Sequence record: NC_019503.1
From: Escherichia phage ime09
Reading direction: 5' to 3' (one strand)
Length of the DNA stretch: 64,000 nt
Position numbers and translations under genes: made by a program. The notes beneath the pieces are model-generated. The model was not told where the DNA came from. It made no database searches and worked only from the letters and a program-made list of their open reading frames with translations. Of the stretch, positions 3,715 to 62,538 are shown piece after piece (positions within the stretch are counted from its first letter, which is position 1; the number at the start of each line of letters is the position of its first letter).

Positions 3715-5133
3715 TTATGGATAGGTATAGATGATACCAGTTTCTAAAGCAGTTTTATGAATGATGTATCCATTACGTGATTCTTGAACATCAACTTCTG
3801 GATAGTCTTTCATCATCTTCTGAAGAGTGTAACGATGCAGGTAGTATTTACTATCTGGATCTTCAGTTTTCCAATCTTTACCTTCTTCGGTCATTTTTTG
3901 GATTTCATCCATAACCCACCAACCGCACCAGATATAAGCCGAAGTACGATGTGGAAGAGGATGAACATAAGGCAATTCACCTTCTGGTTCTGGAGCAACT
4001 TTATCAGTTACCTGAACTTGACCTTCTGCTGTGATAGTTTTGCTATCATAATCAGTAGCAGTAACAGTTGCAGTAACTTCAATAGTTTGACTTCCAATAG
4101 ATGATGTATCAACCGTGTATACATTAGTTGACCCTTCTACTGGAGAAGAATCTTTCTTCCATGAATATTCGATTTGTGCTTCTTCTGGAGCATCCGTAAC
4201 ATTAGCAGTAAATGTAGCCGAAGCATCTTGCTGAACGTTAATAGAAGGAGGAGTCAATGTAACCTGTGGATTCATTGTTTTCTTATTAACAGTCAATGAT
4301 ACTTCATTAGAAGTAACTTCCTTTTCATTGTAATTTTCTGCAGTTACTTGAGCTACACACTTAACTGTTTTAGCTCCAACTGTGGTAGGAGTATAGTTAA
4401 ATGTAGTAGTAGTTTCTCCATCGACCAGAGAACCGTCAACATACCACTGATACGTAGCAGACGCTCCTGGTGGCTGTGAAGCCAAGGCAGCAGTAAATTG
4501 AACTGGGGTTCCAATTACCCCGGCAGCAGGATTAGCAGGAGTTACTGCCAAGGTAGTCGTCTGCGTCTTCTTATTAACTGTTAATGATACTTCATTAGAA
4601 GTAACGCTTAGTGTATCATAATCTGCCGCAGTTACTTGAGCTACACACTTGATTTTTTTAACTCCGCTTGTGTCAGGAGTGTAATTGAATGTAGCGTCAG
4701 TTGCTTCGTCTACAGGAGAACCGTCAACGTGCCATTGATACGTAGCGTTTGCACCTGATGGCTGTGAAGCTAAGGCAGCGGTAAATTCAATTGGAGTTCC
4801 AATCACTCCAGCATCAGGGCTACCAGGAGTTACAGCTAAAGTAGTTGTTTGTGTCTTATTTTGAACTGTGATAGTTGTACTAATTTCTGCTGTTTCAGGT
4901 TCAGATTCTGCAACTTGATTGGTTGCAACTACTTTAATAGTCTTTTGACCGGCAGGTCCTTTTAGTACATAACTAAAAGTTGCTGACGTTTCTTCCTGTG
5001 GAGCGTCGTCTACAGTCCAAGCATATGTAATAGGTCCATCTCCAGTTTGACCACTGGGTGTAGCAGTAAACTGCTGAGTCTGATCTATAACTCCAGTAGG
5101 TGTTTTAGGAGTTATATCAACTGTAAAAGCCAT
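3715..5133 (-). CDS. hoc: Highly immunogenic outer capsid protein Hoc, 472 aa with an extra Ig-like domain
   Basis: Repeated Ig-like modules (TLAVTP...YQW.VDGS...KCVAQVTA...EVSLTVNKKT) and position between 24.x and inh; T4 Hoc is 376 aa. Confidence 0.85.
   Translation of the reverse strand: MAFTVDITPKTPTGVIDQTQQFTATPSGQTGDGPITYAWTVDDAPQEETSATFSYVLKGPAGQKTIKVVATNQVAESEPETAEISTTITVQNKTQTTTLAVTPGSPDAGVIGTPIEFTAALASQPSGANATYQWHVDGSPVDEATDATFNYTPDTSGVKKIKCVAQVTAADYDTLSVTSNEVSLTVNKKTQTTTLAVTPANPAAGVIGTPVQFTAALASQPPGASATYQWYVDGSLVDGETTTTFNYTPTTVGAKTVKCVAQVTAENYNEKEVTSNEVSLTVNKKTMNPQVTLTPPSINVQQDASATFTANVTDAPEEAQIEYSWKKDSSPVEGSTNVYTVDTSSIGSQTIEVTATVTATDYDSKTITAEGQVQVTDKVAPEPEGELPYVHPLPHRTSAYIWCGWWVMDEIQKMTEEGKDWKTEDPDSKYYLHRYTLQKMMKDYPEVDVQESRNGYIIHKTALETGIIYTYP
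4291..4860 (-). repeat. Tandem ~285-bp direct repeat inside hoc encoding two near-identical Ig-like domains
   Basis: Protein residues ~92-186 and ~187-281 are highly similar; the underlying DNA blocks at roughly 4291-4575 and 4576-4860 align. Confidence 0.75.
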
Positions 5134-15911: not shown

Positions 15912-15914
15912 CAA

Positions 15915-15946
15915 TGGGGACCGAAAGGTCCCCATATTTTTATTTA
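15915..15946 (+). terminator. Intrinsic terminator after gene 54
   Basis: ggggacc-gaaa-ggtcccc followed by atatttttattt. Confidence 0.7.
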
Positions 15947-16230
15947 CGGAATGAAATAAAAGCAGCAACTGAAGCAACTAGACTGTCTTCAATATAAACT
16001 TCAATTTTTACCGGAGCTTCTGACTCAAATTTACCTGTTACTACACCCTGGAAAATGCTTTCAGTCTGTTCTGGCTTTAAAAAATTTTCAGAAGGAAAAA
16101 TTCCGAACTTTTTATCTGTTCCAAAAATTTTGATAAATTCATCATAAACTGCTTCATTAAAAGCGTTATCAGCAGGAATAACGCCTTCAACTACAAGTTC
16201 TTGACCTAAAAAGCGTAAAGAAGATTTCAT
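15940..16230 (-). CDS. Hypothetical protein (alt.-3 position)
   Basis: 96-aa ORF with an AGGA RBS 7 nt upstream of the ATG. Confidence 0.6.
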   Translation of the reverse strand: MKSSLRFLGQELVVEGVIPADNAFNEAVYDEFIKIFGTDKKFGIFPSENFLKPEQTESIFQGVVTGKFESEAPVKIEVYIEDSLVASVAAFISFRK

Positions 16231-16237
16231 TTTGTGT

Positions 16238-16291
16238 TCCTCATGTTATGTCAGTAAAACTATTGTAACACAACACGAGGGACTTGTAAAC
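16238..16291 (-). promoter_or_regulatory. Early-promoter/leader element copy A (GTTTAC -35, TACAAT -10) with a 13-bp hairpin overlapping the alt.-3 Shine-Dalgarno
   Basis: Matches 31848-31901 at 52 of 54 positions; arms 16239-16251 and 16268-16280 pair in the minus-sense RNA with 11 Watson-Crick plus 2 G-U pairs. Confidence 0.55.
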
Positions 16292-18348
16292 TACATCTTG
16301 AACTTTTTAGACATTCCGTTGATGTTAACCAAAGAAGCCAAGATTTGAGAAACTTCGTTTTCCTCTTCTTTTGATTCTTCTACAAGGAATTGATTAAACC
16401 CAGCCATTGGACGAACTTCACCAGTTTCCATTAGATGATCGCCATCATATACCGATTCTTCTAATTGTTCAGAAGGAGGAACGATTGTGCCTTCGATTAG
16501 ATACTTGTTATAAGCAGTTTCTTTCATCATGTACGTGCTTACTTTATTAATCTTCAACAAAATTCCACGCGGTAGAATAACTTCAGCTTCTGATGGAAAT
16601 CCTGATAAATGACCTGGAACGATAACTTTGATTCGCTCAGCCCCTTTAATTACCATACCTACGCTAGTTTCAGCATCTTCATTAGCATATGCAGAATGAC
16701 TACCCATATGCATTAAATCTTCAGCATCAACAGAACCTTCTCCTTCACCAGAAAATACTGCACCGGAATCATCTAGAGCCATATAGTTTTTACCATGCTC
16801 ACCGAAGATATTTGGTTTAAGCGATGTTGATACGAAGTTCTTGAAATAGAACATTTTATTTTCAATATTATGGCGTAAAGTTTTAAAAGTAACTTCTTGT
16901 CCACGATAAAGCGTAGTTCCTGGAGGAAGAACTGATCCTTTTGCGAATGCAGAATCCAGCGTCTCGATGTGTTTAATAGCTCGTTCCATGTATTCTTCAC
17001 GGGTAGAATCTGGTTTACCCAAGAGGAACGAGTTCATTTCAACATATGAATCTGCACAATAATCTTCAATTACATCAGACTCAGCCTGAGTCAGTCCTTT
17101 TGGAGTTACTTCGGTGCTTGCGTATTCATATGCCTGAGCAGCAGATTCATTAATCAATTTATAAATGCCATTCATGACAAATTGAATAATAGCTACTTTT
17201 TCGTCTGGCGTGGCTTTAGAACCTTTAACTAAATCATTGATAATTTTCTTAATAACATCAAAGCTATTAGAAATATTAATGTCAGCGAGATCGCTCAAAA
17301 TTTTATCGGTTTTATAATCAAAAAATTCTTTATTCTTTAAATATTCTTGAGAACCTTGATGTGTTATATCGCTCTGCAGTCTGATAGACGGATCACGTAA
17401 ACGTGCATGGGCCAATGCAATATGATTTCGGAAGCTTTCTAGTTCATAATCGTTAGATTTAAAACGAGAAGCACTTCTCATACCACCGATAGCTCCTTTG
17501 CCGAAGTTTGAACCAATCTGAATAACGCCAGAGTTCATTGGTCCTTCTGCTTTATATACCGGAACTTTAGATTCAAACTCTTGATATTTCTTGGCAGCGA
17601 AGCTATCACCCTGAAGTGAAGCATCGACAGTAGAATATTGAGCTTGTGCTGCTAATCGACGACTAATTTTAGTTTTCTGAATAACAGCTTGATCCGTGCG
17701 CTTATCATTTTCTAAGGCAATAGAAGCAGCAACAGCAACAGCTTTAGGAACAGCATTACCTGTTTTAACATCTACATAAACATCACCAACCTTTGATTCA
17801 ACTTTTGTGAATAACTCAGTTGAAATAGGAGGTACACCTGGAATGTCTTCTAAATTGGCATTTTTACGGTAAACCATAATATATGCATACTTTTTATCAT
17901 AATCCCAGATTTCCTTTAAAAGAACATATCGACCTGCTCCTTTAGTACGTACTAAACGGTCAGCAATAACTTGCATTTGACGAGCAGCGCCATTTGTTTT
18001 ACTTTTTAGTACGCGGAATAGGCATGCGTCAATTTTATACTGTTTCATTGTTTGAAGAGCAGTATCAAAAACCGCATTAATGACACCAATTGGATTTCCA
18101 CCCAAGTTTTTAAGTTTAACGAGCGATAGTTTCTCATTGACACCTATCATTACGATATGCATCATTTTATCGCCTGGCTTAACGTTTTTATTTGTATCAC
18201 CGCCAGAGGTGTATGTACAAAATCTAAATCCAGGAAGCACACTTTCTTCGCCGGCTTGAATAGCAAAAATTTGAGGTATTTTATGCTTAGGATTTAAGTT
18301 AACAACCGGCGCCGAAGCGCCGTCAAATAATTCTGTAATAAGTTCCAT
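16291..18348 (-). CDS. Alt-like ADP-ribosyltransferase, paralog 1 (685 aa)
   Basis: C-terminal R / STS / ExE motifs (LYRGQ, FVSTSL, EAEVILPRG); N-terminus MELITELFD shared with the adjacent paralog. Confidence 0.8.
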   Translation of the reverse strand: MELITELFDGASAPVVNLNPKHKIPQIFAIQAGEESVLPGFRFCTYTSGGDTNKNVKPGDKMMHIVMIGVNEKLSLVKLKNLGGNPIGVINAVFDTALQTMKQYKIDACLFRVLKSKTNGAARQMQVIADRLVRTKGAGRYVLLKEIWDYDKKYAYIMVYRKNANLEDIPGVPPISTELFTKVESKVGDVYVDVKTGNAVPKAVAVAASIALENDKRTDQAVIQKTKISRRLAAQAQYSTVDASLQGDSFAAKKYQEFESKVPVYKAEGPMNSGVIQIGSNFGKGAIGGMRSASRFKSNDYELESFRNHIALAHARLRDPSIRLQSDITHQGSQEYLKNKEFFDYKTDKILSDLADINISNSFDVIKKIINDLVKGSKATPDEKVAIIQFVMNGIYKLINESAAQAYEYASTEVTPKGLTQAESDVIEDYCADSYVEMNSFLLGKPDSTREEYMERAIKHIETLDSAFAKGSVLPPGTTLYRGQEVTFKTLRHNIENKMFYFKNFVSTSLKPNIFGEHGKNYMALDDSGAVFSGEGEGSVDAEDLMHMGSHSAYANEDAETSVGMVIKGAERIKVIVPGHLSGFPSEAEVILPRGILLKINKVSTYMMKETAYNKYLIEGTIVPPSEQLEESVYDGDHLMETGEVRPMAGFNQFLVEESKEEENEVSQILASLVNINGMSKKFKM

Positions 18349-18351
18349 GAT

Positions 18352-20448
18352 TTATCCTTGAACGAACTTGTAAGGCATGTTTGTAATATCTATGCAAGAC
18401 GCAATAATTCCAAGAGATGATTCTACTTTTTGTTTAACATTTGATGAAACAAATGATGCAAAGTCAACTCTGTCTTCTATTTCAATATCACCTGTCATTG
18501 CAACTACTTCACCAGTTTCCATTAGACGGTCACCGTCATAAATTACTGATTCGGTGAGTTCTTCCGTAGTCATAACTTCAGCTTGAATGAGTTTTGTATT
18601 ATTAGATGTTGTTCCGTCGTTATTAGAAGCATCAGTTATTTTATTGACTTTGACCATCAATCCGCGTGGTAGAATAACTTCAGCTTCTGTTGCTATTCCG
18701 AGACTTCCTGGATATACAACATTAACTTTATGAGCTCCATCAATTGCCCATCCTATTTGAACTTTAACGTATTCAGGATTTTCTTTATACGCTCTTATTT
18801 CATTTGGATTAATAGTTATTCCTTCTTCATTTTTATCAACTGTCAATTCATTACGAGCTTCTGGTTCTAAAAGACCAATACCAGCATGTGTAATTCCAAA
18901 ACGTCCAAAAATGATAGGAGTTAAAGAAGTAGATACAAAATTTCTGAAATAGAACACTTTATTTTTAACTAGTGCTTCGTATATAGGAGCAGTCATGCTT
19001 TGAGCACGATAAACTGTAATGCCTTCTGGTATACGGTCACCGTTTTCAAAAGCTGAATCTAAGTTATTTATAGCAGATTCAATTTCTTTTTCACTCATTA
19101 CATCATATCGTTCTGGATTGTAACGACCCAAAAGAAGATTATTGATGTCAGTATATCCTGAACCACAATACTCTCTAATGCCGCGCTTTTGTGATGGAGT
19201 ATATTTAGAACCATCACGGGCAATAGTAATATCAATCATTGGACCTGCACCAATTCCAGAAAAGCTATAAATCATTCGTTTGAGGAATTTAGTTTTTGCT
19301 GCGTTCCAGGAATTTTTAGTTATTTCTTCCCAGACTTCATCTGGCTGTCCTTTACGGGTTTTATTATGTTTATCAAGCCAATTATCTTTATATTCTTCAA
19401 AGAATTGATTAACGGCTGCTGCGTATTTCTCCAAACATTTTATTGAAGTAGTTGGTTCATTTTTAATCGCATTAAGAATTACATCTTTAATTTTTTCAGA
19501 AACTTCATTAACCTCACTTTTTGAAAAGAATTTATAATCATAGTGAAGTTCATCTGCAGTTCCTTCGGCAATGATTTTTGCTGCCTTAGTTTTAGAAGCT
19601 AATGAATTAATTCCAAGCTTCATTTCTTCTGCTTCGGGAATTAAAGGAGCTGTAGCAGGTTTATTGAAATTAGCTGCGGTAGATTCATACTTTTGGAATA
19701 ATTCACTTTCAAATCTAGAAGATTCCAATGACTGACTTTGTGCAATTGCTCTGCGGGAAATTTTAACTTTAACGATTACAGCTTGGTCAGAACGTTTATC
19801 GTTTTCTTGTGCAATAGATGCTGCAATTGCCTCATTTTTAGTTACTTGAGCTCCAGTATCTTTATTGATATAAACATCACCGACCTTCGATTCAACTTTA
19901 GTAAAGAGCTCGGTACTGATTTCCGGAACTCCTGGAATGTCTTCTAATGATACATTTTTGCGATGTATAAGAATATATGCATACTTTTTATCGTAATCCC
20001 AGAGTTCCTTAAGAAGGACGTATCTGCCGCCTGAACGGCTGCGGATAAGTCTATCAGCAATAACTTGAATTTGTCGAGCTTGACCAGCAGTTTTAGACTT
20101 AAGAATACGAAGCATACAGGCATCAATTTTATACTGACGCATTGTTTGCATTGCAACAGTAAAAACTGAATTGATGTAATTAATTGGGCTTGGACCGAGA
20201 CCTTTCAATTTAGCAATTGAACCTTTAGCAGTTAATGTAAAAGGAACAATATGCATCATTTTATCACCCATCTTTAAATCGCGATTAGTATCACCTCCAG
20301 ATGTATAGGTACATAAACGAAAGCCTGGTTGTTCAATTGCGTCATCAACATGAACTGAAAAAATTTGCGGTATTTTCTTCTTTGGATTTAAGTTTGTAAT
20401 CGGAAGAGTAGTATCTTCGTCAAATAATTCTGTAATGAGTTCCATCAT
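18352..20448 (-). CDS. alt: Alt ADP-ribosyltransferase, paralog 2 (698 aa)
   Basis: Motifs VYRAQ, FVSTSL, EAEVILPRG; position next to DNA ligase; candidate minus-strand late promoter 20469-20476. Confidence 0.8.
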   Translation of the reverse strand: MMELITELFDEDTTLPITNLNPKKKIPQIFSVHVDDAIEQPGFRLCTYTSGGDTNRDLKMGDKMMHIVPFTLTAKGSIAKLKGLGPSPINYINSVFTVAMQTMRQYKIDACMLRILKSKTAGQARQIQVIADRLIRSRSGGRYVLLKELWDYDKKYAYILIHRKNVSLEDIPGVPEISTELFTKVESKVGDVYINKDTGAQVTKNEAIAASIAQENDKRSDQAVIVKVKISRRAIAQSQSLESSRFESELFQKYESTAANFNKPATAPLIPEAEEMKLGINSLASKTKAAKIIAEGTADELHYDYKFFSKSEVNEVSEKIKDVILNAIKNEPTTSIKCLEKYAAAVNQFFEEYKDNWLDKHNKTRKGQPDEVWEEITKNSWNAAKTKFLKRMIYSFSGIGAGPMIDITIARDGSKYTPSQKRGIREYCGSGYTDINNLLLGRYNPERYDVMSEKEIESAINNLDSAFENGDRIPEGITVYRAQSMTAPIYEALVKNKVFYFRNFVSTSLTPIIFGRFGITHAGIGLLEPEARNELTVDKNEEGITINPNEIRAYKENPEYVKVQIGWAIDGAHKVNVVYPGSLGIATEAEVILPRGLMVKVNKITDASNNDGTTSNNTKLIQAEVMTTEELTESVIYDGDRLMETGEVVAMTGDIEIEDRVDFASFVSSNVKQKVESSLGIIASCIDITNMPYKFVQG

Positions 20449-20468: not shown

Positions 20469-20476
20469 TATTTATA
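20469..20476 (-). promoter_or_regulatory. Late promoter TATAAATA (minus strand) upstream of alt
   Basis: The plus-strand tatttata is TATAAATA on the minus strand, about 20 nt upstream of a GAGGA RBS and the alt ATG at 20448. Confidence 0.5.
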
Positions 20477-24683: not shown

Positions 24684-25052
24684 TTATGCAACTTTAATCC
24701 AATTATCTAAATTTAATTCACCTTTGGCTTTCATTTTTTCAATCAAGAGGTCAGCGGTAATACGACCATTTTGATACCACGTAACATCTTCAGAGTAACC
24801 AGTTTCTTTATCTTCATAAGTCTCACAGCGAATTTTACCAAGAATCAAAGTTTTTAATTCGTATGTATCTCCAGTAAAAAAGTTAGTTAACATTATTTTC
24901 CAAGAGAAGTCATCAGAAGGACCTTCAGGAGTCATGCAACCTACAAATTCAAATTGTTCTTTGTATAAGTGCCACTGAAGTTCTTTAGTTTCGATAGCTT
25001 TATAGCCGTCGTGATCTTTACCTTTGATGTATGAGTTAAGATTGATTTTCAT
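24684..25052 (-). CDS. Hypothetical protein
   Basis: 122-aa ORF; early-promoter-like element at about 25075-25115. Confidence 0.5.
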   Translation of the reverse strand: MKINLNSYIKGKDHDGYKAIETKELQWHLYKEQFEFVGCMTPEGPSDDFSWKIMLTNFFTGDTYELKTLILGKIRCETYEDKETGYSEDVTWYQNGRITADLLIEKMKAKGELNLDNWIKVA

Positions 25053-25127
25053 TTTATTCTCCTTTGTTTGTGTAAGATAATACTATCACAAAGGAACCAT
25101 ACTGTAAACAACTTTGTGCAATCTTTG

Positions 25128-25160
25128 GAAAATAAAAAAGGACTCCCGAAGGAGTCCTCA
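25128..25160 (-). terminator. Minus-strand intrinsic terminator
   Basis: ggactcc-cgaa-ggagtcc; on the minus strand it is followed by ttttttatttt. Confidence 0.7.
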
Positions 25161-27996: not shown

Positions 27997-28517
27997 GTTG
28001 ATCCCAGCTCCTTACTTTCAACGTTTTTAACTAATTTGACAGAAACTAATTCGGCATCTTGGGTAATCATTACCGGGCCTTCTTTATACTCTTCAAGATA
28101 TTCTAGAGCTTTCTTTTTAGCTTCTTCCTTCGTATCAGTTTGAGCATAGATATAAAACATACAACCAGTAATACCTACTACTTTCCACTTAATTTCTTTA
28201 TCAGTTTTAATTTCAAATTTACTGACAGAATCGTCTTTTTGAACTTCTTCGAAAAAAGAATATTCTAACATATAAGCAATTGAAAATAACGGGCTAACTT
28301 TATAGGATTCGCCCATTACATCAACAGCTTTATACCAACAGTCATCAATTTCGCGTTTAATGCTAATAACATTTTTCGCAGGATCTATTTTTACTTTAAA
28401 TGAATTTTCCCCAATAAACTGAGCAATTCGTTTATTAGCCCCGCAGGTTTCATTAAAAATATCTTTATATCCAGCTTTAAAGCGATAAACCTTATCTTCT
28501 TCAAACCATTCGCTCAT
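27990..28517 (-). CDS. Hypothetical protein
   Basis: 175-aa ORF; early-promoter-like element at about 28540-28585. Confidence 0.5.
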   Translation of the reverse strand: MSEWFEEDKVYRFKAGYKDIFNETCGANKRIAQFIGENSFKVKIDPAKNVISIKREIDDCWYKAVDVMGESYKVSPLFSIAYMLEYSFFEEVQKDDSVSKFEIKTDKEIKWKVVGITGCMFYIYAQTDTKEEAKKKALEYLEEYKEGPVMITQDAELVSVKLVKNVESKELGSTC

Positions 28518-28579
28518 TTCAATTTCCTCATTTGTTTTGGTAGAGCTATAATATCACAACTCTACCGTAAAGTAAACTG

Positions 28580-28855
28580 TTAAATTGCTTTGAATTCTGA
28601 TGTCTGTGATTCAAAGCGAATATCGCCTTTGATGACTAGCTCAGCATCAAGACCGAATACGACAATGATATGCGCGGAACCTGGATACAGCGTAATGGCA
28701 ATAGAATCCACCTGGTCTGGAAGCAAAGTGTTCAATACATGAGTCACTTGAGCATGAATTCGAAGCTCAGCTGCGTTATCAAGCTTTTCAAACATATTAT
28801 TAGCGATAATTTGGCTAAACACTACTTCTACGATTTTAGAGTAAGTTGGAAACAT
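28580..28855 (-). CDS. Hypothetical protein
   Basis: 91-aa ORF. Confidence 0.5.
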   Translation of the reverse strand: MFPTYSKIVEVVFSQIIANNMFEKLDNAAELRIHAQVTHVLNTLLPDQVDSIAITLYPGSAHIIVVFGLDAELVIKGDIRFESQTSEFKAI

Positions 28856-30996: not shown

Positions 30997-31346
30997 TTAG
31001 AAAGGTCCTGGATGTCTTCTGCGAACTTGTTGAAGGAGTTGTTGATTTGTTTTTCAACCAATCCTGGCTTATGAGCCACCACATCCGCCTTCTTTGCGTC
31101 TTTGCGCAGTTTTTCATTTTCACGCTCAATAGCAGCAATTGCCTCACGATTTTTATTATTCATCGCATCAATATAATTATACTGAATTCGCAAATTATTT
31201 AATGCTAAAGCGTTTTCATTGGCCGTTTTTGTAATTTCTACAACAGACGTTTCTAATCTTTCAATTTTATTTTTTAAAATTAAAGAAGTTCCGCCCAATG
31301 CAATTACAATTAATAACAAGCCTGTTGTCGTATTACTTAATTGCAT
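30993..31346 (-). CDS. Probable i-spanin (N-terminal TM helix plus coiled coil, Rz equivalent)
   Basis: N-terminal hydrophobic helix GLLLIVIALGGTSLIL followed by a charged, heptad-like region; overlaps the o-spanin start. Confidence 0.6.
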   Translation of the reverse strand: MQLSNTTTGLLLIVIALGGTSLILKNKIERLETSVVEITKTANENALALNNLRIQYNYIDAMNNKNREAIAAIERENEKLRKDAKKADVVAHKPGLVEKQINNSFNKFAEDIQDLSK

Positions 31347-31840
31347 AAAGTTTTAATAACCTCTATAATATCGTCTTGAGAAAGACCGTTAATTAAAATA
31401 TGATGTTCAGCCGGAGATTTAGAAATTTTAAAGCATGCCTCAACATCTTCTGCCATATCCGATGCGCTACGATTTGGATTACTAATTCCAAGACGGTGTT
31501 TTCCCGTCAAAGGATTAACGATGATATAGCATTTACAATTATTGATATGAACATTAGGTTGAGTCTGATTAATGAACACATCACAATCATATTTCGCAAG
31601 CTGATTTTCTAAAAAGACTTTCATCTCCTCAACCGCATCAGGAAGCATATCACGGGCTTGCTCAAGACGACGATTTCGATATTCTTTAATGGTCGTTTTC
31701 CGCTTGACTTGCTTAGCTAAATCTTTCTTAAGATCGGTGATATATCCAACTCGACGATTTCCTTTAAATACAGAAATCCCATCTGTAGTATCACCGTATG
31801 CTTCAACGACCATTTCAGTAGTAATAAGCTGTAAATCCAT
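31337..31840 (-). CDS. alc: Probable Alc (host transcription unfolding/termination protein)
   Basis: 167 aa from the second ATG (AGGA RBS 7 nt upstream); position between the pseT.x genes and rnlA. Confidence 0.65.
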   Translation of the reverse strand: MDLQLITTEMVVEAYGDTTDGISVFKGNRRVGYITDLKKDLAKQVKRKTTIKEYRNRRLEQARDMLPDAVEEMKVFLENQLAKYDCDVFINQTQPNVHINNCKCYIIVNPLTGKHRLGISNPNRSASDMAEDVEACFKISKSPAEHHILINGLSQDDIIEVIKTLCN

Positions 31841-31847
31841 CATAAAG

Positions 31848-31901
31848 TCCTCATGTTATGTCAGTAAGACTACTGTAACACAACACGAGGGACTTGTAAA
31901 C
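31848..31901 (-). promoter_or_regulatory. Early-promoter/leader element copy B with a hairpin overlapping the alc Shine-Dalgarno
   Basis: Near-identical to 16238-16291; GTTTAC -35 at 31896-31901 (minus); arms 31849-31861 and 31878-31890. Confidence 0.55.
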
Positions 31902-31904
31902 AGC

Positions 31905-33492
<1,588 letters not shown>

Positions 33493-39673: not shown

Positions 39674-39916
39674 TTAAACAGACTTTTTCACAATTTTCCA
39701 ATCAGCTTTAAACTGTTCAACATCAGAATGGTAAATCCAGAATCCTGCGCTTTCTCCATCCTCATAAAGAGGGCATCCATCACATTCATCTTCCCATCCC
39801 ATATCACGCAAAAGACGTTCAGCTTTTTCAACAAGTTCAGAATCTTTACCGATGATATTAAAATACCATTTACCTCTAACTTCTGAATCTTTAATGCTCT
39901 GACGTTGTAATCTCAT
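39674..39916 (-). CDS. Hypothetical protein (frd.2 position)
   Basis: 80-aa ORF; early-promoter-like element at about 39935-39975. Confidence 0.5.
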   Translation of the reverse strand: MRLQRQSIKDSEVRGKWYFNIIGKDSELVEKAERLLRDMGWEDECDGCPLYEDGESAGFWIYHSDVEQFKADWKIVKKSV

Positions 39917-39970
39917 TTTATTCTCCTTAGTTGATAGGGTAATAGTATCACACTACTACCCTTCTGTAAA

Positions 39971-40351
39971 CTACTTTTTGAAAGTTTTTCGCAAAAGTTC
40001 AATGATTTCATCTACATTGTTTTCGTCTACAACGCAGTGAATTTTTGTTACGCCAGAAACCTTGTCTTTGACTTCATCTTCTTCAGAAGTCGGTTCTTTA
40101 TACTCGCGAAAACAATGAAATTCATCTTCGCAAATTTCTAAAAGTCTATCTTTGAGGTAAAAATGCTTTCCATTAGCACATTCAATATGTTTTACCGCTT
40201 TAAATCCATTAGCAAAGAAAACTTCTTTAACTTCAAACCATCCGCCATTTTCTCGAATAATTTTAACTATTGACGCGTTGGATCGTGGGCTATAATTAAT
40301 AAATGTATCAATAAGTCTTGGAACAAGTTCATACTTTTTGCCAATATACAT
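39971..40351 (-). CDS. Hypothetical protein (frd.3 position)
   Basis: 126-aa ORF. Confidence 0.5.
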   Translation of the reverse strand: MYIGKKYELVPRLIDTFINYSPRSNASIVKIIRENGGWFEVKEVFFANGFKAVKHIECANGKHFYLKDRLLEICEDEFHCFREYKEPTSEEDEVKDKVSGVTKIHCVVDENNVDEIIELLRKTFKK

Positions 40352-40660: not shown

Positions 40661-40700
40661 GATAGTTGTATAGTACCATAAAGCTTTATGCTTGTAAACC
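40661..40700 (-). promoter_or_regulatory. T4-type early promoter (GTTTAC -35; TACTATACA -10 region), cassette copy 1
   Basis: Shares a conserved block with 57895-57937 and 61925-61965, including the upstream A/T-rich UP-like tract. Confidence 0.55.
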
Positions 40701-40724
40701 GTTTTGTGAAAAAATTTTTGAAAT

Positions 40725-40752
40725 AAAAAAGGGGACCTCTAGGGTCCCCAAT
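40725..40752 (-). terminator. Terminator downstream of gene 32
   Basis: ggggacc-tctag-ggtcccc; on the minus strand it is followed by ttttttatttc. Confidence 0.7.
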
Positions 40753-40771
40753 TAATTAGTAATATAATTTA

Positions 40772-44044: not shown

Positions 44045-47000
44045 ATGGCCGAGATTAAAAGAAAGTTCAGAGCAGAAGATGGTCTGGACGCAGGTGGCGA
44101 TAAAATAATCAACGTAGCTTTAGCTGATCGTGCCGTAGGAACTGACGGTGTTAACGTTGATTACCTAATTCAAGAAAACACAGTTCAACAATACGATCCA
44201 ACTCGTGGATATTTAAAAGATTTTGTAATCATTTATGATAACCGCTTTTGGGCTGCTATAAATGATATTCCAAAACCGGCAGGAGCTTTTAATAGCGGAC
44301 GCTGGAGAGCATTACGTACCGATGCTAACTGGATTACAGTCTCATCTGGTTCATATCAATTAAAATCTGGTGAAGCTATTTCGGTTAACACTGCAGCTGG
44401 TAATGATATTACATTTACTTTACCATCTACTCCAATTGACGGTGATACTATCGTTCTCCAAGACATTGGAGGAAAACCTGGAGTTAACCAAGTTTTAATT
44501 GTAGCTCCAGTGCAAAGTATTGTAAACTTCAGAGGCGAGCAAGTACGTTCAGTACTAATGACTCATCCAAAGTCACAGTTAGTTTTAATTTTTAGTAATC
44601 GTCTGTGGCAAATGTATGTAGCTGATTATAGTAGAGAAGCTGTAGTTGTAACACCAGCGAATACTTATCAAGCACAATCCAACGATTTTATCGTACGTAG
44701 ATTTACTTCTGCTGCACCGATAAATATTAAACTTCCGAGATTTGCTAATCACGGCGATATTATTAATTTCGTCGATTTGGATAAATTAAACCCTCTTTAT
44801 CATACAATTGTTACTACATATGATGAAACGACATCAGTGCAAGAAGATGGAACTCATTCCATTGAAGGCCGTACATCGATTGACGGTTTCTTGATGTATG
44901 ATGATAATGAGAAATTATGGAGATTATTTGACGGGGACAGTAAAGCACGTTTACGTATCATAACAACTAATTCAAACATTCGTCCAAATGAAGAAGTTAT
45001 GGTATTTGGTGCGAATAACGGAACAACTCAAACGATTGAGCTTCAGCTTCCAACTAATATTTCTGTTGGTGATACTGTTAAAATTTCCATGAATTACATG
45101 AGAAAAGGACAAACAGTTAAAATCAAAGCTGCCGGTGAAGATAAAATTGCTTCTTCAGTTCAATTGCTGCAATTCCCAAAACGTTCAGAGTATCCACCTG
45201 AAGCTGAATGGGTGACTGTTCAAGAATTAGTTTTTAACGGTGAAACTAATTATGTTCCAGTTTTACAACTTGCTTATATAGAAGATTCTGACGGAAAATA
45301 CTGGGTTGTACAACAAAACGTTCCAACCGTAGAAAGAGTTGATTCTTTAAACGATTCTACTAGAGCAAGATTAGGCGTAATTGCTTTAGCTACACAAGCG
45401 CAAGCTAATGTCGATTTAGAAAATTCTCCACAAAAAGAATTAGCAATTACTCCAGAAACATTAGCTAACCGTACTGCTACAGAAACTCGTAGAGGTATCG
45501 CAAGAATAGCAACCACTGCTCAAGTGAATCAGAACACCACATTCTCTTTTGCTGATGATATTATCATTACACCTAAAAAGCTGAATGAAAGAACTGCTAC
45601 AGAAACTCGTAGAGGTGTTGCTGAAATTGCTACGCAACAGGAAACTAATGCAGGTACTGATGATACTACAATCATCACTCCTAAAAAGCTTCAAGCTCGA
45701 CAAGGTTCTGAATCATTATCTGGTATTGTAACCTTTGTATCTACTGCAGGAGCTACTCCAGCTTCTAGTCGTGAATTAAATGGTACAAACGTTTATAATA
45801 AAAACACTAATAATTTAGTTGTTTCGCCTAAAGCTCTGGATCAGTATAAAGCTACTCCAACACAACAAGGTGCAGTAATTTTAGCAGTTGAAAGTGAAGT
45901 AATTGCTGGACAGAGCCAAGAAGGATGGGCAAATGCGGTTGTAACGCCAGAAACGTTACATAAAAAGACATCAACTGATGGAAGAATTGGTTTAATTGAA
46001 ATTGCTACGCAAAGTGAAGTTAATACAGGAACTGATTATACTCGTGCAGTCACTCCTAAAACTTTAAATGACCGTAAAGCAACTGAAAGTTTAAGTGGTA
46101 TAGCTGAAATTGCTACACAAGTTGAATTCGACGCAGGCGTCGACGATACTCGTATCTCTACACCATTAAAAATTAAAACTAGATTTGATAGTACTGATCG
46201 TACTTCTGTTGTTGCTCTATCTGGATTAGTTGAATCAGGAACTCTCTGGGACCATTATACCCTTAATATTCTTGAAGCAAATGAGACACAGCGTGGTACA
46301 CTTCGTGTAGCTACACAGGTTGAAGCTGCTGCAGGAACATTAGATAATGTTTTAATAACTCCTAAAAAGCTTTTAGGTACTAAATCTACTGAAGCACAGG
46401 AAGGCGTTATTAAAGTTGCAACTCAGTCTGAAACTGTGACTGGAACGTCAGCAAATACTGCTGTATCTCCAAAAAATTTAAAATGGATTGTGCAGAGTGA
46501 ACCTACTTGGGCAGCTACTACTGCGATAAGAGGCTTTGTTAAAACTTCATCCGGTTCAATTACATTCGTTGGTAATGATACAGTTGGTTCAACACAGTCG
46601 TTAGAATTATACGAGAAAAATAGCTATGCAGTATCACCATATGAATTAAACCGTGTATTAGCAAATTATTTGCCATTAAAAGCAAAAGCTGCTGATACAA
46701 ATTTATTGGATGGTCTAGATTCATCTCAGTTCATTCGTAGGGATATTGCACAGACAGTTAATGGTTCACTAACCTTAACCCAACAAACGAATCTGAGTGC
46801 CCCTCTTGTATCATCTAGTACTGCTACGTTTGGTGGATCAGTTTCGGCAAACAGCACATTAACTATTTCTAATACTGGAACGGCAACTCGTCTGATTTTT
46901 GAGAAAGGACCTCAAACTGGAACTAACCCAGTACAGACGATGACTATCAGAGTTTGGGGAAATCAGTACGGTGGCGGTTCAGATACAACACGTTCTACTG

Positions 47001-57894: not shown

Positions 57895-57937
57895 TTGATA
57901 GTTGTATAGTACCATAGTATGCTTTGGTTGTAAACCG
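57895..57937 (-). promoter_or_regulatory. Early promoter for motA (cassette copy 2)
   Basis: GTTTAC at 57930-57935 (minus) with a -10-like TATACA; matches the 40661-40700 promoter region. Confidence 0.6.
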
Positions 57938-57959
57938 TTTTGTGAAAAAATTTTTGAAA

Positions 57960-57990
57960 TAAAAAAGGGAGAGCCTCGGCTCTCCCTAAA
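57960..57990 (-). terminator. Minus-strand terminator (gggagagcc-tc-ggctctccc then T-run)
   Basis: 9-bp GC-rich stem; on the minus strand it is followed by ttttttatttc. Confidence 0.7.
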
Positions 57991-57991
57991 A

Positions 57992-58141
57992 TTACTGCAT
58001 GACTGTGATAACTGTCATGATAACACGTTGAATTCCGAACGCAAGAAGACCTCCTGCTACGGCAGGAACAACACCTAAACCCGCCAGTAAAATGCTACCA
58101 GATACTAATGCAGCACTTGTAATACCTATGAATGGACTCAT
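57992..58141 (-). CDS. Small hydrophobic membrane protein (49 aa)
   Basis: ATG overlaps the gene 52 stop (ATGA); translation MSPFIGITSAALVSGSILLAGLGVVPAVAGGLLAFGIQRVIMTVITVMQ; absent from the ORF track. Confidence 0.45.
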   Translation of the reverse strand: MSPFIGITSAALVSGSILLAGLGVVPAVAGGLLAFGIQRVIMTVITVMQ

Positions 58142-61180: not shown

Positions 61181-61423
61181 TTTCTGTTCCTCCGTAGTTG
61201 ATAGGGTAATAATACCACAGAGGAACAGTCTTGTAAACAACTTTTTTAAAAATATTCGTAATAAATGTGAATACCAACTACTACCGCTGAAACTTGTGCA
61301 ACCCACCACGCACAAGCAATAAGTACAGAATTCAAAATTTTCATAATAACCTCATCACAAAAGTAAATGCTAAACAAATCAATGGAATACTAATTAACCA
61401 AACAAAACACCACCATAATGAAC

Positions 61424-61911: not shown

Positions 61912-61924
61912 ATCCGTATCAGTT

Positions 61925-61965
61925 GATAGTTGTATAGTACCACAGTCCTTGTGGTATGTAAACCG
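61925..61965 (-). promoter_or_regulatory. Early promoter (cassette copy 3)
   Basis: GTTTAC at 61958-61963 (minus) with a TATACA -10-like box; strongly similar to the 40661-40700 and 57895-57937 promoters. Confidence 0.55.
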
Positions 61966-61980
61966 TTTTGTGAAAATTTT

Positions 61981-62538
61981 TTAAATGGAAAGATACCATC
62001 CGTTGTAGTTGCTTTTTCTTACAACCTTACGAAGGTCTTCTCTATCACCGATGAACTTCGGAGTGTACTGGATGACACCTGGGTGAATTTCTTTAGTGTT
62101 GAATATAATTATACAGTCAGCGACCTGATGATTCAGAATGGGCCCTAGATTTATTCCAGAACCGTATGGATACTCTCCGCTGCATCCGGTTGTTACCGAA
62201 ATCCAACGTGAGTCAGTTTGATGTGTCTTAACTTCTACACGAAGCCCGCAGTATCTTGGATGCGCCAATACATCCCATGCGTATGTATACGGGTCATTAA
62301 CATCCTCTTGGCCTTTGTTAACATACCCGCTTAGCCAATCTGCTACAAAAAACTCTGCGTACACCGCGATACGACATCTTTCGATAACTTCTGCTTTATC
62401 CTGGTTCGGGTTTTGTTTTAAAGAGTATCTTGCTGTATCAGCAATTTTGACCTTCATTTCACTAGTCAAGTCACTGTTCGATAGGGTAAATGTCGGAATC
62501 TGAAATAGTCTCTGTAAACCCGGATTCGTTTTCTGCAT
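61981..62538 (-). CDS. Hypothetical 185-aa protein, possibly endonuclease IV (denB) by size and position near rIIB
   Basis: 185-aa ORF; identity from synteny only. Confidence 0.45.
   Translation of the reverse strand: MQKTNPGLQRLFQIPTFTLSNSDLTSEMKVKIADTARYSLKQNPNQDKAEVIERCRIAVYAEFFVADWLSGYVNKGQEDVNDPYTYAWDVLAHPRYCGLRVEVKTHQTDSRWISVTTGCSGEYPYGSGINLGPILNHQVADCIIIFNTKEIHPGVIQYTPKFIGDREDLRKVVRKSNYNGWYLSI

Follow-up and report, generated by a model that had tools for sequence, protein, structure and literature searches.

Putative Shine-Dalgarno-masking hairpins around the early promoters of alc and alt.-3 in T4-like phages

Introduction

In bacteriophage T4, the genes e, soc, 49 and that of I-TevI share a mode of control in which the Shine-Dalgarno sequence (SD) and/or the AUG lies within a helix in RNA started upstream, and in which a promoter between the two arms of this helix gives rise to a translated RNA without the 5' arm (PMC3014915). 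The genes alc and alt.-3 are not among the SD-hairpin cases compiled in this 2010 review. Here, we analyze a 54-nucleotide (nt) element that precedes both of these genes in a 64,000-nt stretch of DNA from Escherichia phage ime09 (sequence record NC_019503.1; this whole stretch is called the window in the following, with position 1 as its first letter), and that combines the motifs of an early promoter with a predicted SD-masking hairpin.

Related principles are found outside this group of genes. In RNA phages and bacterial operons, hairpin-gated translational coupling relies on a downstream ribosome-binding site that is closed by upstream pairing. Phage gene regulation has T4 as its reference system, in which alc is the classic gene for the shut-off of host transcription. 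From the analyses described below, we consider it reasonably likely, if by no means certain, that, because of the hairpin, alc and alt.-3 are translated only from RNA made at their own immediate-early promoters.

Results and discussion

A repeated element with an early promoter

The window is a segment of a Tequatrovirus (T4-like) genome, in which the genes around both elements lie on the minus strand. Their names are taken from annotated relatives, namely AR1 for alt, alt.-3 and 54 and T4 for rnlA and alc; the closest record to the alt.-3 region is that of Escherichia phage PinkRuby, with 99% identity. A first-pass annotation, made from the letters of the window, had pointed to two near-identical blocks upstream of alt.-3 and alc that are embedded in unrelated surroundings, and these claims were borne out. 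The AR1 and T4 annotations confirm the two downstream genes, and in minus-strand sense the two copies are identical at 52 of 54 positions, as against no match with three or fewer mismatches in 100 dinucleotide shuffles.

16238..16291, minus strand: 54-nt element copy A, flanked by the second alt paralogue's stop codon and by alt.-3 (direct-repeat family D12)
31848..31901, minus strand: 54-nt element copy B, flanked by the stop codon of rnlA and by alc
15940..16230, minus strand: alt.-3 coding sequence, 96 aa, as in annotated relatives
31337..31843, minus strand: alc coding sequence, 168 aa from the first ATG

Both differences between the copies fall into the loop of the hairpin described below: position 16263 is A where 31873 is G, which is the fifth position of the -10 hexamer, and 16258 is T where 31868 is C, between the -10 hexamer and the predicted start. 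The likeness stops exactly at the borders of the element, i.e. at the stop codons of the alt paralogue (copy A) and of rnlA (copy B) on the upstream side and at the leaders of alt.-3 and alc on the downstream side. A plus-strand open reading frame across copy B (31689-32117), antisense to alc and rnlA, was discarded as unsupported.

Read in the sense of transcription, the element has the form G-TTTACA-AGTCCCTCGTGTTGTGT-TACAAT-AGTTTTACTGACATAACATGAGGA. A consensus scan flags a promoter at both copies, consisting of TTTACA, a 17-nt spacer and TGn-TACAAT (copy A) or TACAGT (copy B). It is of the sigma-70 early type, matches the T4/PST consensus TTTACW N17 TAYWAT and is also marked by several GenBank annotators; the first-pass annotation had described the same site as GTTTAC, 18 nt and TACAAT. 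The T4 late-promoter motif TATAAATA does not occur inside either element. By promoter geometry, the conserved -35, TGn and -10 motifs put the expected +1 in the loop, at an A 7 nt past the -10 hexamer, where the other genera have kept an A as well.

16285..16290, minus strand: -35 hexamer TTTACA of copy A, abutted by the upstream TAG stop codon (16291-16293)
16262..16267, minus strand: extended -10 hexamer TACAAT of copy A, with TGT before it
16255, minus strand: predicted transcription start of copy A, an A in the loop, 7 nt past the -10 hexamer, inferred from promoter geometry
31895..31900, minus strand: -35 hexamer TTTACA of copy B, from the promoter scan
31872..31877, minus strand: -10 hexamer TACAGT of copy B, with TG extension
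31865, minus strand: predicted transcription start of copy B, inferred from promoter geometry

In another context, alc served as a quantitative PCR target for the validation of NAD-capped T4 RNAs, which would fit a +1A start upstream of this gene (bioRxiv 10.1101/2024.04.04.588121).

The promoter spacer as arm of a predicted SD-masking hairpin

Folding of both loci with RNAfold yields stable hairpins in the minus-sense RNA. Copy A forms a contiguous 15-bp stem of 12 Watson-Crick and 3 G-U pairs (-20.8 kcal/mol, z -3.0), and copy B a longer, bulged stem (-28.6 kcal/mol, z -5.4). In these structures, the spacer CCUCGUGUUGUGU pairs with ACAUAACAUGAGG; that is, the 17-nt promoter spacer is itself the 5' arm. 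RNA of the opposite sense folds more weakly (-17.4 and -17.9 kcal/mol), because the three G.U pairs turn into A.C mismatches.

16266..16280, minus strand: 5' arm of hairpin A, CCUCGUGUUGUGUUA, predicted with RNAfold; promoter spacer, carries the anti-SD CCUC
16239..16253, minus strand: 3' arm of hairpin A, UGACAUAACAUGAGG, predicted with RNAfold; SD GAGG at 16239-16242
31878..31895, minus strand: 5' arm of hairpin B, predicted with RNAfold; spacer plus four extra basal pairs, AAGU
31845..31861, minus strand: 3' arm of hairpin B, predicted with RNAfold; SD GAGG at 31849-31852

The 13-bp stem that the first-pass annotation had drawn for the minus-sense RNA (11 Watson-Crick and 2 G-U pairs) forms the core of the 15-bp stem, and its expectation that the G-U pairs would be lost as A-C mismatches in the opposite sense agrees with the folding energies. 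It had also located the -10 hexamer in the loop; this is correct for most of the hexamer, but its first two bases form the top of the stem. Finally, it had recognized that the 3' arm holds the SD, and indeed GAGGA is followed by 7 nt to the alt.-3 ATG and by 4 nt to the first alc ATG. In RNA started upstream, the probability that GAGG is paired is 0.86-1.00 across all variants of the element. The computed cost of opening the region from SD to AUG amounts to 10.6-13.0 kcal/mol in read-through RNA, compared with 1.9-3.2 kcal/mol in RNA from the predicted start.

The hairpins lack the G+C-rich stem and U tract of an intrinsic terminator, with tails that read ACACAAAA (copy A) and CUUUAUGA (copy B), and the absence of a U tract past the stem led us to reject such a terminator at either copy. 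A search against Rfam gave no family at gathering score anywhere in the window.

Conservation within Tequatrovirus

When some 50,000 phage genomes were searched with blastn, the 54-mer was found at 993 places in 498 records, i.e. twice per genome, all of them Tequatrovirus. In T4 itself (AF158101), the copies lie at 136283-136336 upstream of alc and at 123040-123093 upstream of alt.-3. Since every Tequatrovirus record has two copies, the duplication is old in the genus and has been kept throughout. Scans for the invariant 3' arm described below returned 10 stretches from IMG/VR and 8 from metagenome contigs, mostly from genomes that had already been sampled. A 32-kb record named Staphylococcus phage SAJK-IND (MG010123.1) also carries the Tequatrovirus element, at 92.6% identity, and is probably mislabelled or chimeric.

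Variation within the genus was assessed on 18 copies of each element, including several re-fetches of identical contigs. All of them agree in the 3'-arm core ACAUAACAUGAGGA, and the sole change in this arm affects offset 39, the G of the G.U pair that tops the stem. The loop is variable, with TACAAT, TATAGT, TACAGT or TATAAT as -10 hexamer and with different surroundings of the +1; within the promoter, TTTACA is invariant and the -10 hexamer keeps TAnnnT. In the 5' arm, changes are of three kinds only: C-G pairs show C->U and G.U pairs show G->A, both of which preserve pairing, and the CCC run shows C->A, which is absorbed by slippage, with CCC pairing with GG. For the C->U changes to be neutral, it must be the minus-sense RNA that matters, and in every Tequatrovirus variant this sense RNA is 2.5-12 kcal/mol more stable than its antisense counterpart. 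Copies A and B vary mostly independently among the records; two variants are common to both copies of a genome, one at offset 26 (C, in this window) and one at offset 31 (A, in T2).

Rebuilt arms and covariation at the alc junction of other genera

For a comparison beyond Tequatrovirus, we collected the alc upstream regions of annotated phages of other genera and of 37 IMG/VR loci found with an Alc protein profile. The same rnlA-alc architecture, built with different arms, occurs in at least ten other lineages, among them Karamvirus, Gelderlandvirus, Dhakavirus, Winklervirus, Bragavirus, Klebsiella T4-likes and several others. Its layout comprises the upstream stop codon, TTTACA, a 17-nt spacer (16-nt in Dhakavirus) that opens with the anti-SD, the -10 hexamer in the loop, an A seven nt further on, a 3' arm that ends in the SD, an A-rich run and the ATG. 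The arm pairs of individual lineages are UCUCCAUUUGGUU/AACCAAAUGGAGA; UCUCCGUUUAGUU/AACCAAACGGAGA; UCCUCAUUUCGUU/AACGAAAUGAGGA; UCCUCAUUUUGUUG/CAACAAAAUGAGGA; AUCCCAUUUUGUU/AACAAAAUGGGGAU; ACCUCUCAUUUUU/GAAAAUGAGAGGU and CCUCUCGUUUUUG/CAAAAACGAGAGG; UCUCCUCAU/AUGAGGAGA; and UCCUCAUCAG/CUGAUGAGGA.

Aligning all genera together with MAFFT and analyzing them with RNAalifold predicted no structure, because the register of the arms differs between genera. Pairs were counted in a subgroup of 11 sequences that are in register and share a 17-pair helix, and the remaining lineages were evaluated by the duplex energies of cognate versus non-cognate arms. In the subgroup, 93.5% of the cells of the helix are paired, compared with 39-46% after shifting the partners by 1-3 columns; both sides are altered in four pairs (13 cells), and the covariation score of 0.205 (0.099 in shuffles) was reached by none of 500 shuffles. 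Likewise, a lineage's own leader ranks first or second as the partner of its spacer in 12 of 13 lineages, and pairing between spacer and leader is stronger than with shuffled spacers, with z values of -3.8 to -8.1. Across lineages, the anti-SD tracks the type of the SD, as seen in the combinations CCUC/GAGG, CUCC/GGAG, CCUCUC/GAGAGG and CCCC/GGGG. Nothing known about sigma-70 spacers would make them mirror the SD of the gene that follows, so the pairing of spacer and leader reflects selection on a helix. The first-pass annotation had regarded a stem without conservation or covariation as decisive against its proposal; instead, the stem is kept in Tequatrovirus and rebuilt with compensatory changes elsewhere, and each part of the proposal that concerns the sequence is supported.

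VR7-like Gaprivervirus (L038, L063, L064 and L087) is arranged differently, with an extra small open reading frame in the gap from rnlA to alc that carries an Alc-like annotation. Upstream of this frame are a terminator, a TGTACA-17-CATAAT promoter and a local hairpin, GGUUCCAUCA/UGAUGAGGACC; the hairpin covers the SD downstream of the predicted start and would persist even in RNA made from this promoter.

Origin of the alt.-3 copy

A promoter at the equivalent place (TAG-TTTACA) also precedes alt.-3 in Dhaka-, Mosig-, Marfa-, Karam- and Kanagawavirus, but the SD of the gene is free there. The spacers of these five genera (L048-L052) contain a small hairpin that lies wholly between the -35 and -10 hexamers. 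Examples are CACCAC-AAGG-AUGUGG, ACACA-UGGA-UGUGU and ACGU-CGAAUGA-ACGU; the arms differ among genera, a hint that promoter-embedded hairpins of a second kind are under selection. Since the spacer of alt.-3 is different in the other genera, the alc-type spacer was copied onto the alt.-3 promoter in the Tequatrovirus lineage, in the ancestor of the genus. Judging from these sequences, the element is native to the rnlA-alc junction of T4-like phages, and the alt.-3 copy is clearly secondary and specific to Tequatrovirus. Both cassettes already had GTTTACA at their left and AACATGAGGA at their right end, which could have served as homology for such a cassette exchange. The converse is seen in Mosigvirus, whose alc promoter resembles its own alt.-3 promoter.

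These findings bear on the most skeptical view of the element, according to which the near-identity of the copies reflects recent recombination or gene conversion of promoter cassettes and the complementarity of the arms is fortuitous, with no function of the RNA. T4-like promoter/leader cassettes are repeated and do recombine, the alt.-3 copy is secondary, and two variants are shared by both copies within a genome (offset 26 here, offset 31 in T2). Yet none of the 498 Tequatrovirus records lacks either copy, the copies vary for the most part independently, and the reconstruction of complementarity through compensatory changes in at least ten other lineages contradicts this view for the alc copy. 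We therefore regard it as very improbable.

The region upstream of copy A has a history of its own. The window has two tandem, full-length alt-like ADP-ribosyltransferase genes (16291-18348 and 18352-20448, minus strand), as do T2 and DalCa, while PST and AR1 have one. T4 alt.-1 and alt.-2 are the remains of the second alt paralogue, which underwent an internal deletion between two CTAAAAAG repeats; this microhomology deletion rules out a cassette-mediated indel as the cause of the T4 homology break just upstream of copy A. The T4 alt.-2 frame extends into the -10 hexamer of element A. The gene downstream, alt.-3, is non-essential, and mutants with a C-terminal extension escape the CmdTAC defence.

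A proposed role in insulating translation from upstream transcription

The genomic setting of both copies is relevant to the question of which transcripts would carry the full hairpin. On the minus strand, the order around copy A is TATAAATA late promoter, alt, second alt paralogue, copy A, alt.-3 and a bidirectional terminator facing gene 54; around copy B, it is rnlA (from 31905), copy B and alc.

20469..20476, minus strand: TATAAATA, late-promoter motif of T4, ahead of the first alt gene
18352..20448, minus strand: first alt gene
16291..18348, minus strand: second alt-like ADP-ribosyltransferase gene, 685 aa, directly upstream of copy A
15914..15935, both strands: bidirectional terminator hairpin in the gap from alt.-3 to gene 54, where the alt/alt.-3 transcription unit ends; annotated as terminator in phage DalCa
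31905..33029, minus strand: rnlA (RNA ligase 1), upstream of copy B; its end is set by the T4 gene length of 1125 nt

From the alt late promoter onward, no terminator-like site was detected on the minus strand before 15914-15935, and none was found in the gap between rnlA and alc. Given a late promoter before alt and the absence of intervening terminators, read-through RNA is to be expected at both loci, and the late promoter at 20469-20476 is the likely source of late read-through into copy A. The repeat, its fold, the promoter motifs, the conservation with covariation and the difference in opening energy are established by the analyses above, whereas the start site, the presence and quantity of read-through RNA and its influence on translation are predictions.

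The element may thus be understood as a compact early promoter with its leader, in which the 17-nt spacer doubles as an anti-SD arm. RNA that originates upstream, i.e. late alt mRNA at copy A or polycistronic mRNA containing rnlA at copy B, would carry both arms, fold and bury the GAGG, so that alt.-3 or alc would be poorly translated from it. By contrast, as the first-pass annotation had proposed for transcripts from this promoter, RNA that host sigma-70 polymerase starts in the loop would be free of the 5' arm and hence open to translation. As an outcome, the downstream gene would be produced essentially only from its own immediate-early promoter, with its translation insulated from upstream transcription. 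The temporal classes observed in time-resolved omics data of T4 fit an independent early promoter combined with such insulation: alt is late, while alt.-3 directly downstream has early RNA and early protein; rnlA has early RNA and late protein, while alc is early at both levels.

Several points weigh against this proposal. In three alc lineages (L072/L085, L076 and PSTCR6), a hairpin around the -10 hexamer ends 1-5 nt before the SD, and in Mosigvirus, L086, Ac42, phiAS4 and LPCS28, pairing of the SD at alc is absent; masking is therefore common but not universal. Likewise, the free SD of alt.-3 in the five genera named above implies that masking is not generally needed at this gene. Part of the signal is geometric, as leaders of about 25 nt and a long stem that loops out the -10 hexamer and the start almost force the SD into an arm. 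Moreover, in genera whose upstream stop codon lies directly at TTTACA, the ribosome that terminates there may open the basal pairs, which are those of the SD. At alc, finally, the upstream transcripts are also early, and the regulatory gain is less obvious than at alt.-3.

The lineages in which the hairpin encloses the -10 hexamer but spares the SD lead to a second explanation, namely that the element is an insulator of the PeSL type or a 3'-end hairpin, which attenuates or terminates incoming transcription or protects the 3' end of the upstream mRNA, with the overlap of the SD as a by-product of the short leader. By definition, the PeSLs of RB49 and phi1 are early promoters with stem-loops that lie mostly between the -35 and -10 hexamers or overlap the latter, and one of these stem-loops reduced downstream lacZ expression like a strong terminator. 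In addition to the three alc lineages, hairpins at the -10 hexamer that leave the SD free are found at the window promoters 28576 and 39970, and the small spacer hairpins at the alt.-3 promoters of other genera, with arms that differ among genera, are in keeping with this explanation as well. It accounts poorly, however, for the composition of the element: the 8 nt past the stem contain no U in copy A, four in copy B and 0-4 in the lineages read, a terminator scan flags neither copy, and the stems are rich in A/U and G.U pairs, unlike the G/C-rich stem-loops of RB49. The anti-SD also co-varies with the type of the SD, so that the SD bases are part of the selected helix. On this evidence, we consider the explanation unlikely.

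A third explanation starts from the position of the upstream stop codon, which in every lineage lies 0-4 nt before G/TTTACA. In a scheme of translational coupling, the SD would stay closed until the ribosome that finishes the upstream gene melts the base of the stem, such that alc and alt.-3 would follow upstream translation. The anti-SD often follows the hexamer directly; in Dhaka-, Winkler- and Bragavirus, its distance from the stop codon is about 6-7 nt, which is within reach of the footprint of a terminating ribosome. In Tequatrovirus, however, the core stem begins 9-13 nt past the stop codon, which is probably beyond the unwinding reach of this ribosome, and the start codon is about 60 nt downstream. 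The protein classes of T4 speak against coupling too, as rnlA is late and alc early, and alt is late and alt.-3 early. Coupling as the main function is hence improbable in our view, and insulation from upstream transcription remains the reading that we prefer for both genes.

Related cassettes in the window

In a scan of early-promoter-like sites of the window, copies A and B rank first for the pairing of the SD with sequences upstream of the start (P = 1.0). A comparable case, in the region 25050-25108 (minus strand), is the early promoter (25080-25108) of a 122-aa 30.7-like gene, where the spacer UUCCUUUGU pairs with the SD-containing ACAAAGGAG (P = 0.96). This pairing is conserved in T4, T2, DalCa and PST and rebuilt in orthologues (L090-L093), as UCCAGUG/CACUGGA in Gaprivervirus and UCUCCGGU/ACUGGAGA in Dhakavirus. 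The use of the spacer as an anti-SD may therefore be a recurrent design of T4-like early cassettes. More speculatively, it might represent a general and mobile principle, by which many immediate-early genes (alc, alt.-3, 30.7 and others) would be licensed only on RNA from their own promoters, with the pairing selected despite the turnover of sequence and with cassettes that hop together with both controls; we offer this broader idea tentatively and with some doubt.

Other repeats of the window were noted as well. Two families of early-promoter cassettes of 60-100 nt, D2 and D3, have copies at 40661-40758, 57897-57994 and 61925-62022 as well as at 25061-25132, 39923-39994, 61190-61261 and 61915-61986. 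A G/C-rich terminator hairpin with a T tract precedes two of the three D3 copies, and several D2/D3 copies have a spacer palindrome or a hairpin around the -10 hexamer; these families look like classic PeSL-type units. At 28497-28596 and 39896-39990 (minus strand), hairpins enclose the -10 hexamer (GGUAGAG.../CUCUACC and AGGGUAG.../UACCCU) and leave the SD free, comparable to the alc cassettes of L072, L076 and PSTCR6. Finally, a 251-nt direct repeat (4331-4581 versus 4619-4869; 78% identity, 288-nt spacing) and three to four 68-nt repeats within coding sequence (45446-46116) are probably internal repeats of structural, fibre-type genes.

If the proposed insulation is real, it would add a new class to the controls of T4, in which an early promoter sits inside its own SD-masking hairpin and only promoter-proximal RNA is translated. 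It would account for the early expression of alt.-3 directly behind the late gene alt with no terminator between them, and PeSL-type stem-loops would gain a translational role beside their proposed roles as terminators and in recombination. It would also bear on the annotation and the expression engineering of the hundreds of sequenced T4-like therapeutic phages.

Comparison with known systems

Among the systems that restrict early gene expression, the inactivation of T4 early mRNAs by RegB resembles the proposed mechanism in that the SD is disabled and an immediate-early protein is limited to a short burst. The means are different: the RegB nuclease cuts GGAG in the SD, whereas here RNA folding in cis is proposed. 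The element itself was ruled out as a RegB target, as the Tequatrovirus SD is GAGGA and contains no GGAG. From hairpin-gated translational coupling, the arrangement differs in that its internal promoter is predicted to offer an independent route to an open SD, and in that the upstream and downstream genes belong to different temporal classes.

The likeness to the PeSL units of T4-type phages, which the first-pass annotation had not mentioned, extends further. As described in two papers (Arbiol 2010, Comeau 2014), these units consist of an early promoter with an overlapping stem-loop, are bounded by an upstream stop codon and by SD and ATG, are repeated in the genome and can move between loci. 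The elements of the window match the T4/PST promoter consensus, and their stem-loop overlaps the spacer and the -10 hexamer, as in RB49 and phi1. As to repetition and a link with gene shuffling or indels, there are two copies per genome and the cassette has moved to alt.-3, but the indel in the alt paralogue next to copy A in T4 is a microhomology deletion and not a cassette exchange. The described stem-loops of PST and T4, however, lie just upstream of the promoter, which is not so here, and PeSL stem-loops are read as terminators or attenuators and as substrates of recombination, whereas the elements of the window have neither a U tract nor G/C-rich stems. In the searched text of both papers, SD occlusion and the alc site are not mentioned, and the GenBank record of PST carries no PeSL annotation. 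The first-pass annotation knew of no description of the arrangement at alt.-3 or alc, and none was found in the searchable literature, with the main T4 genome review and a paper on the alt region lying outside its reach.

The closest parallel is thus with e, soc, 49 and I-TevI, which the first-pass annotation had already invoked by stating that the element mirrors e, soc and 49. The comparison holds for the predicted sequestration of the SD in read-through RNA and may extend to a promoter between the arms, where the expected start lies. It does not hold for the timing, which is inverted. In the known cases, the internal promoter is late (or middle) and it is early read-through RNA that is silenced. 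At alc and alt.-3, the internal promoter is of the sigma-70 early type (TTTACA-17-TACAAT, with no TATAAATA in either element), its spacer is the 5' arm, and the transcripts that would be silenced are the later or longer ones.

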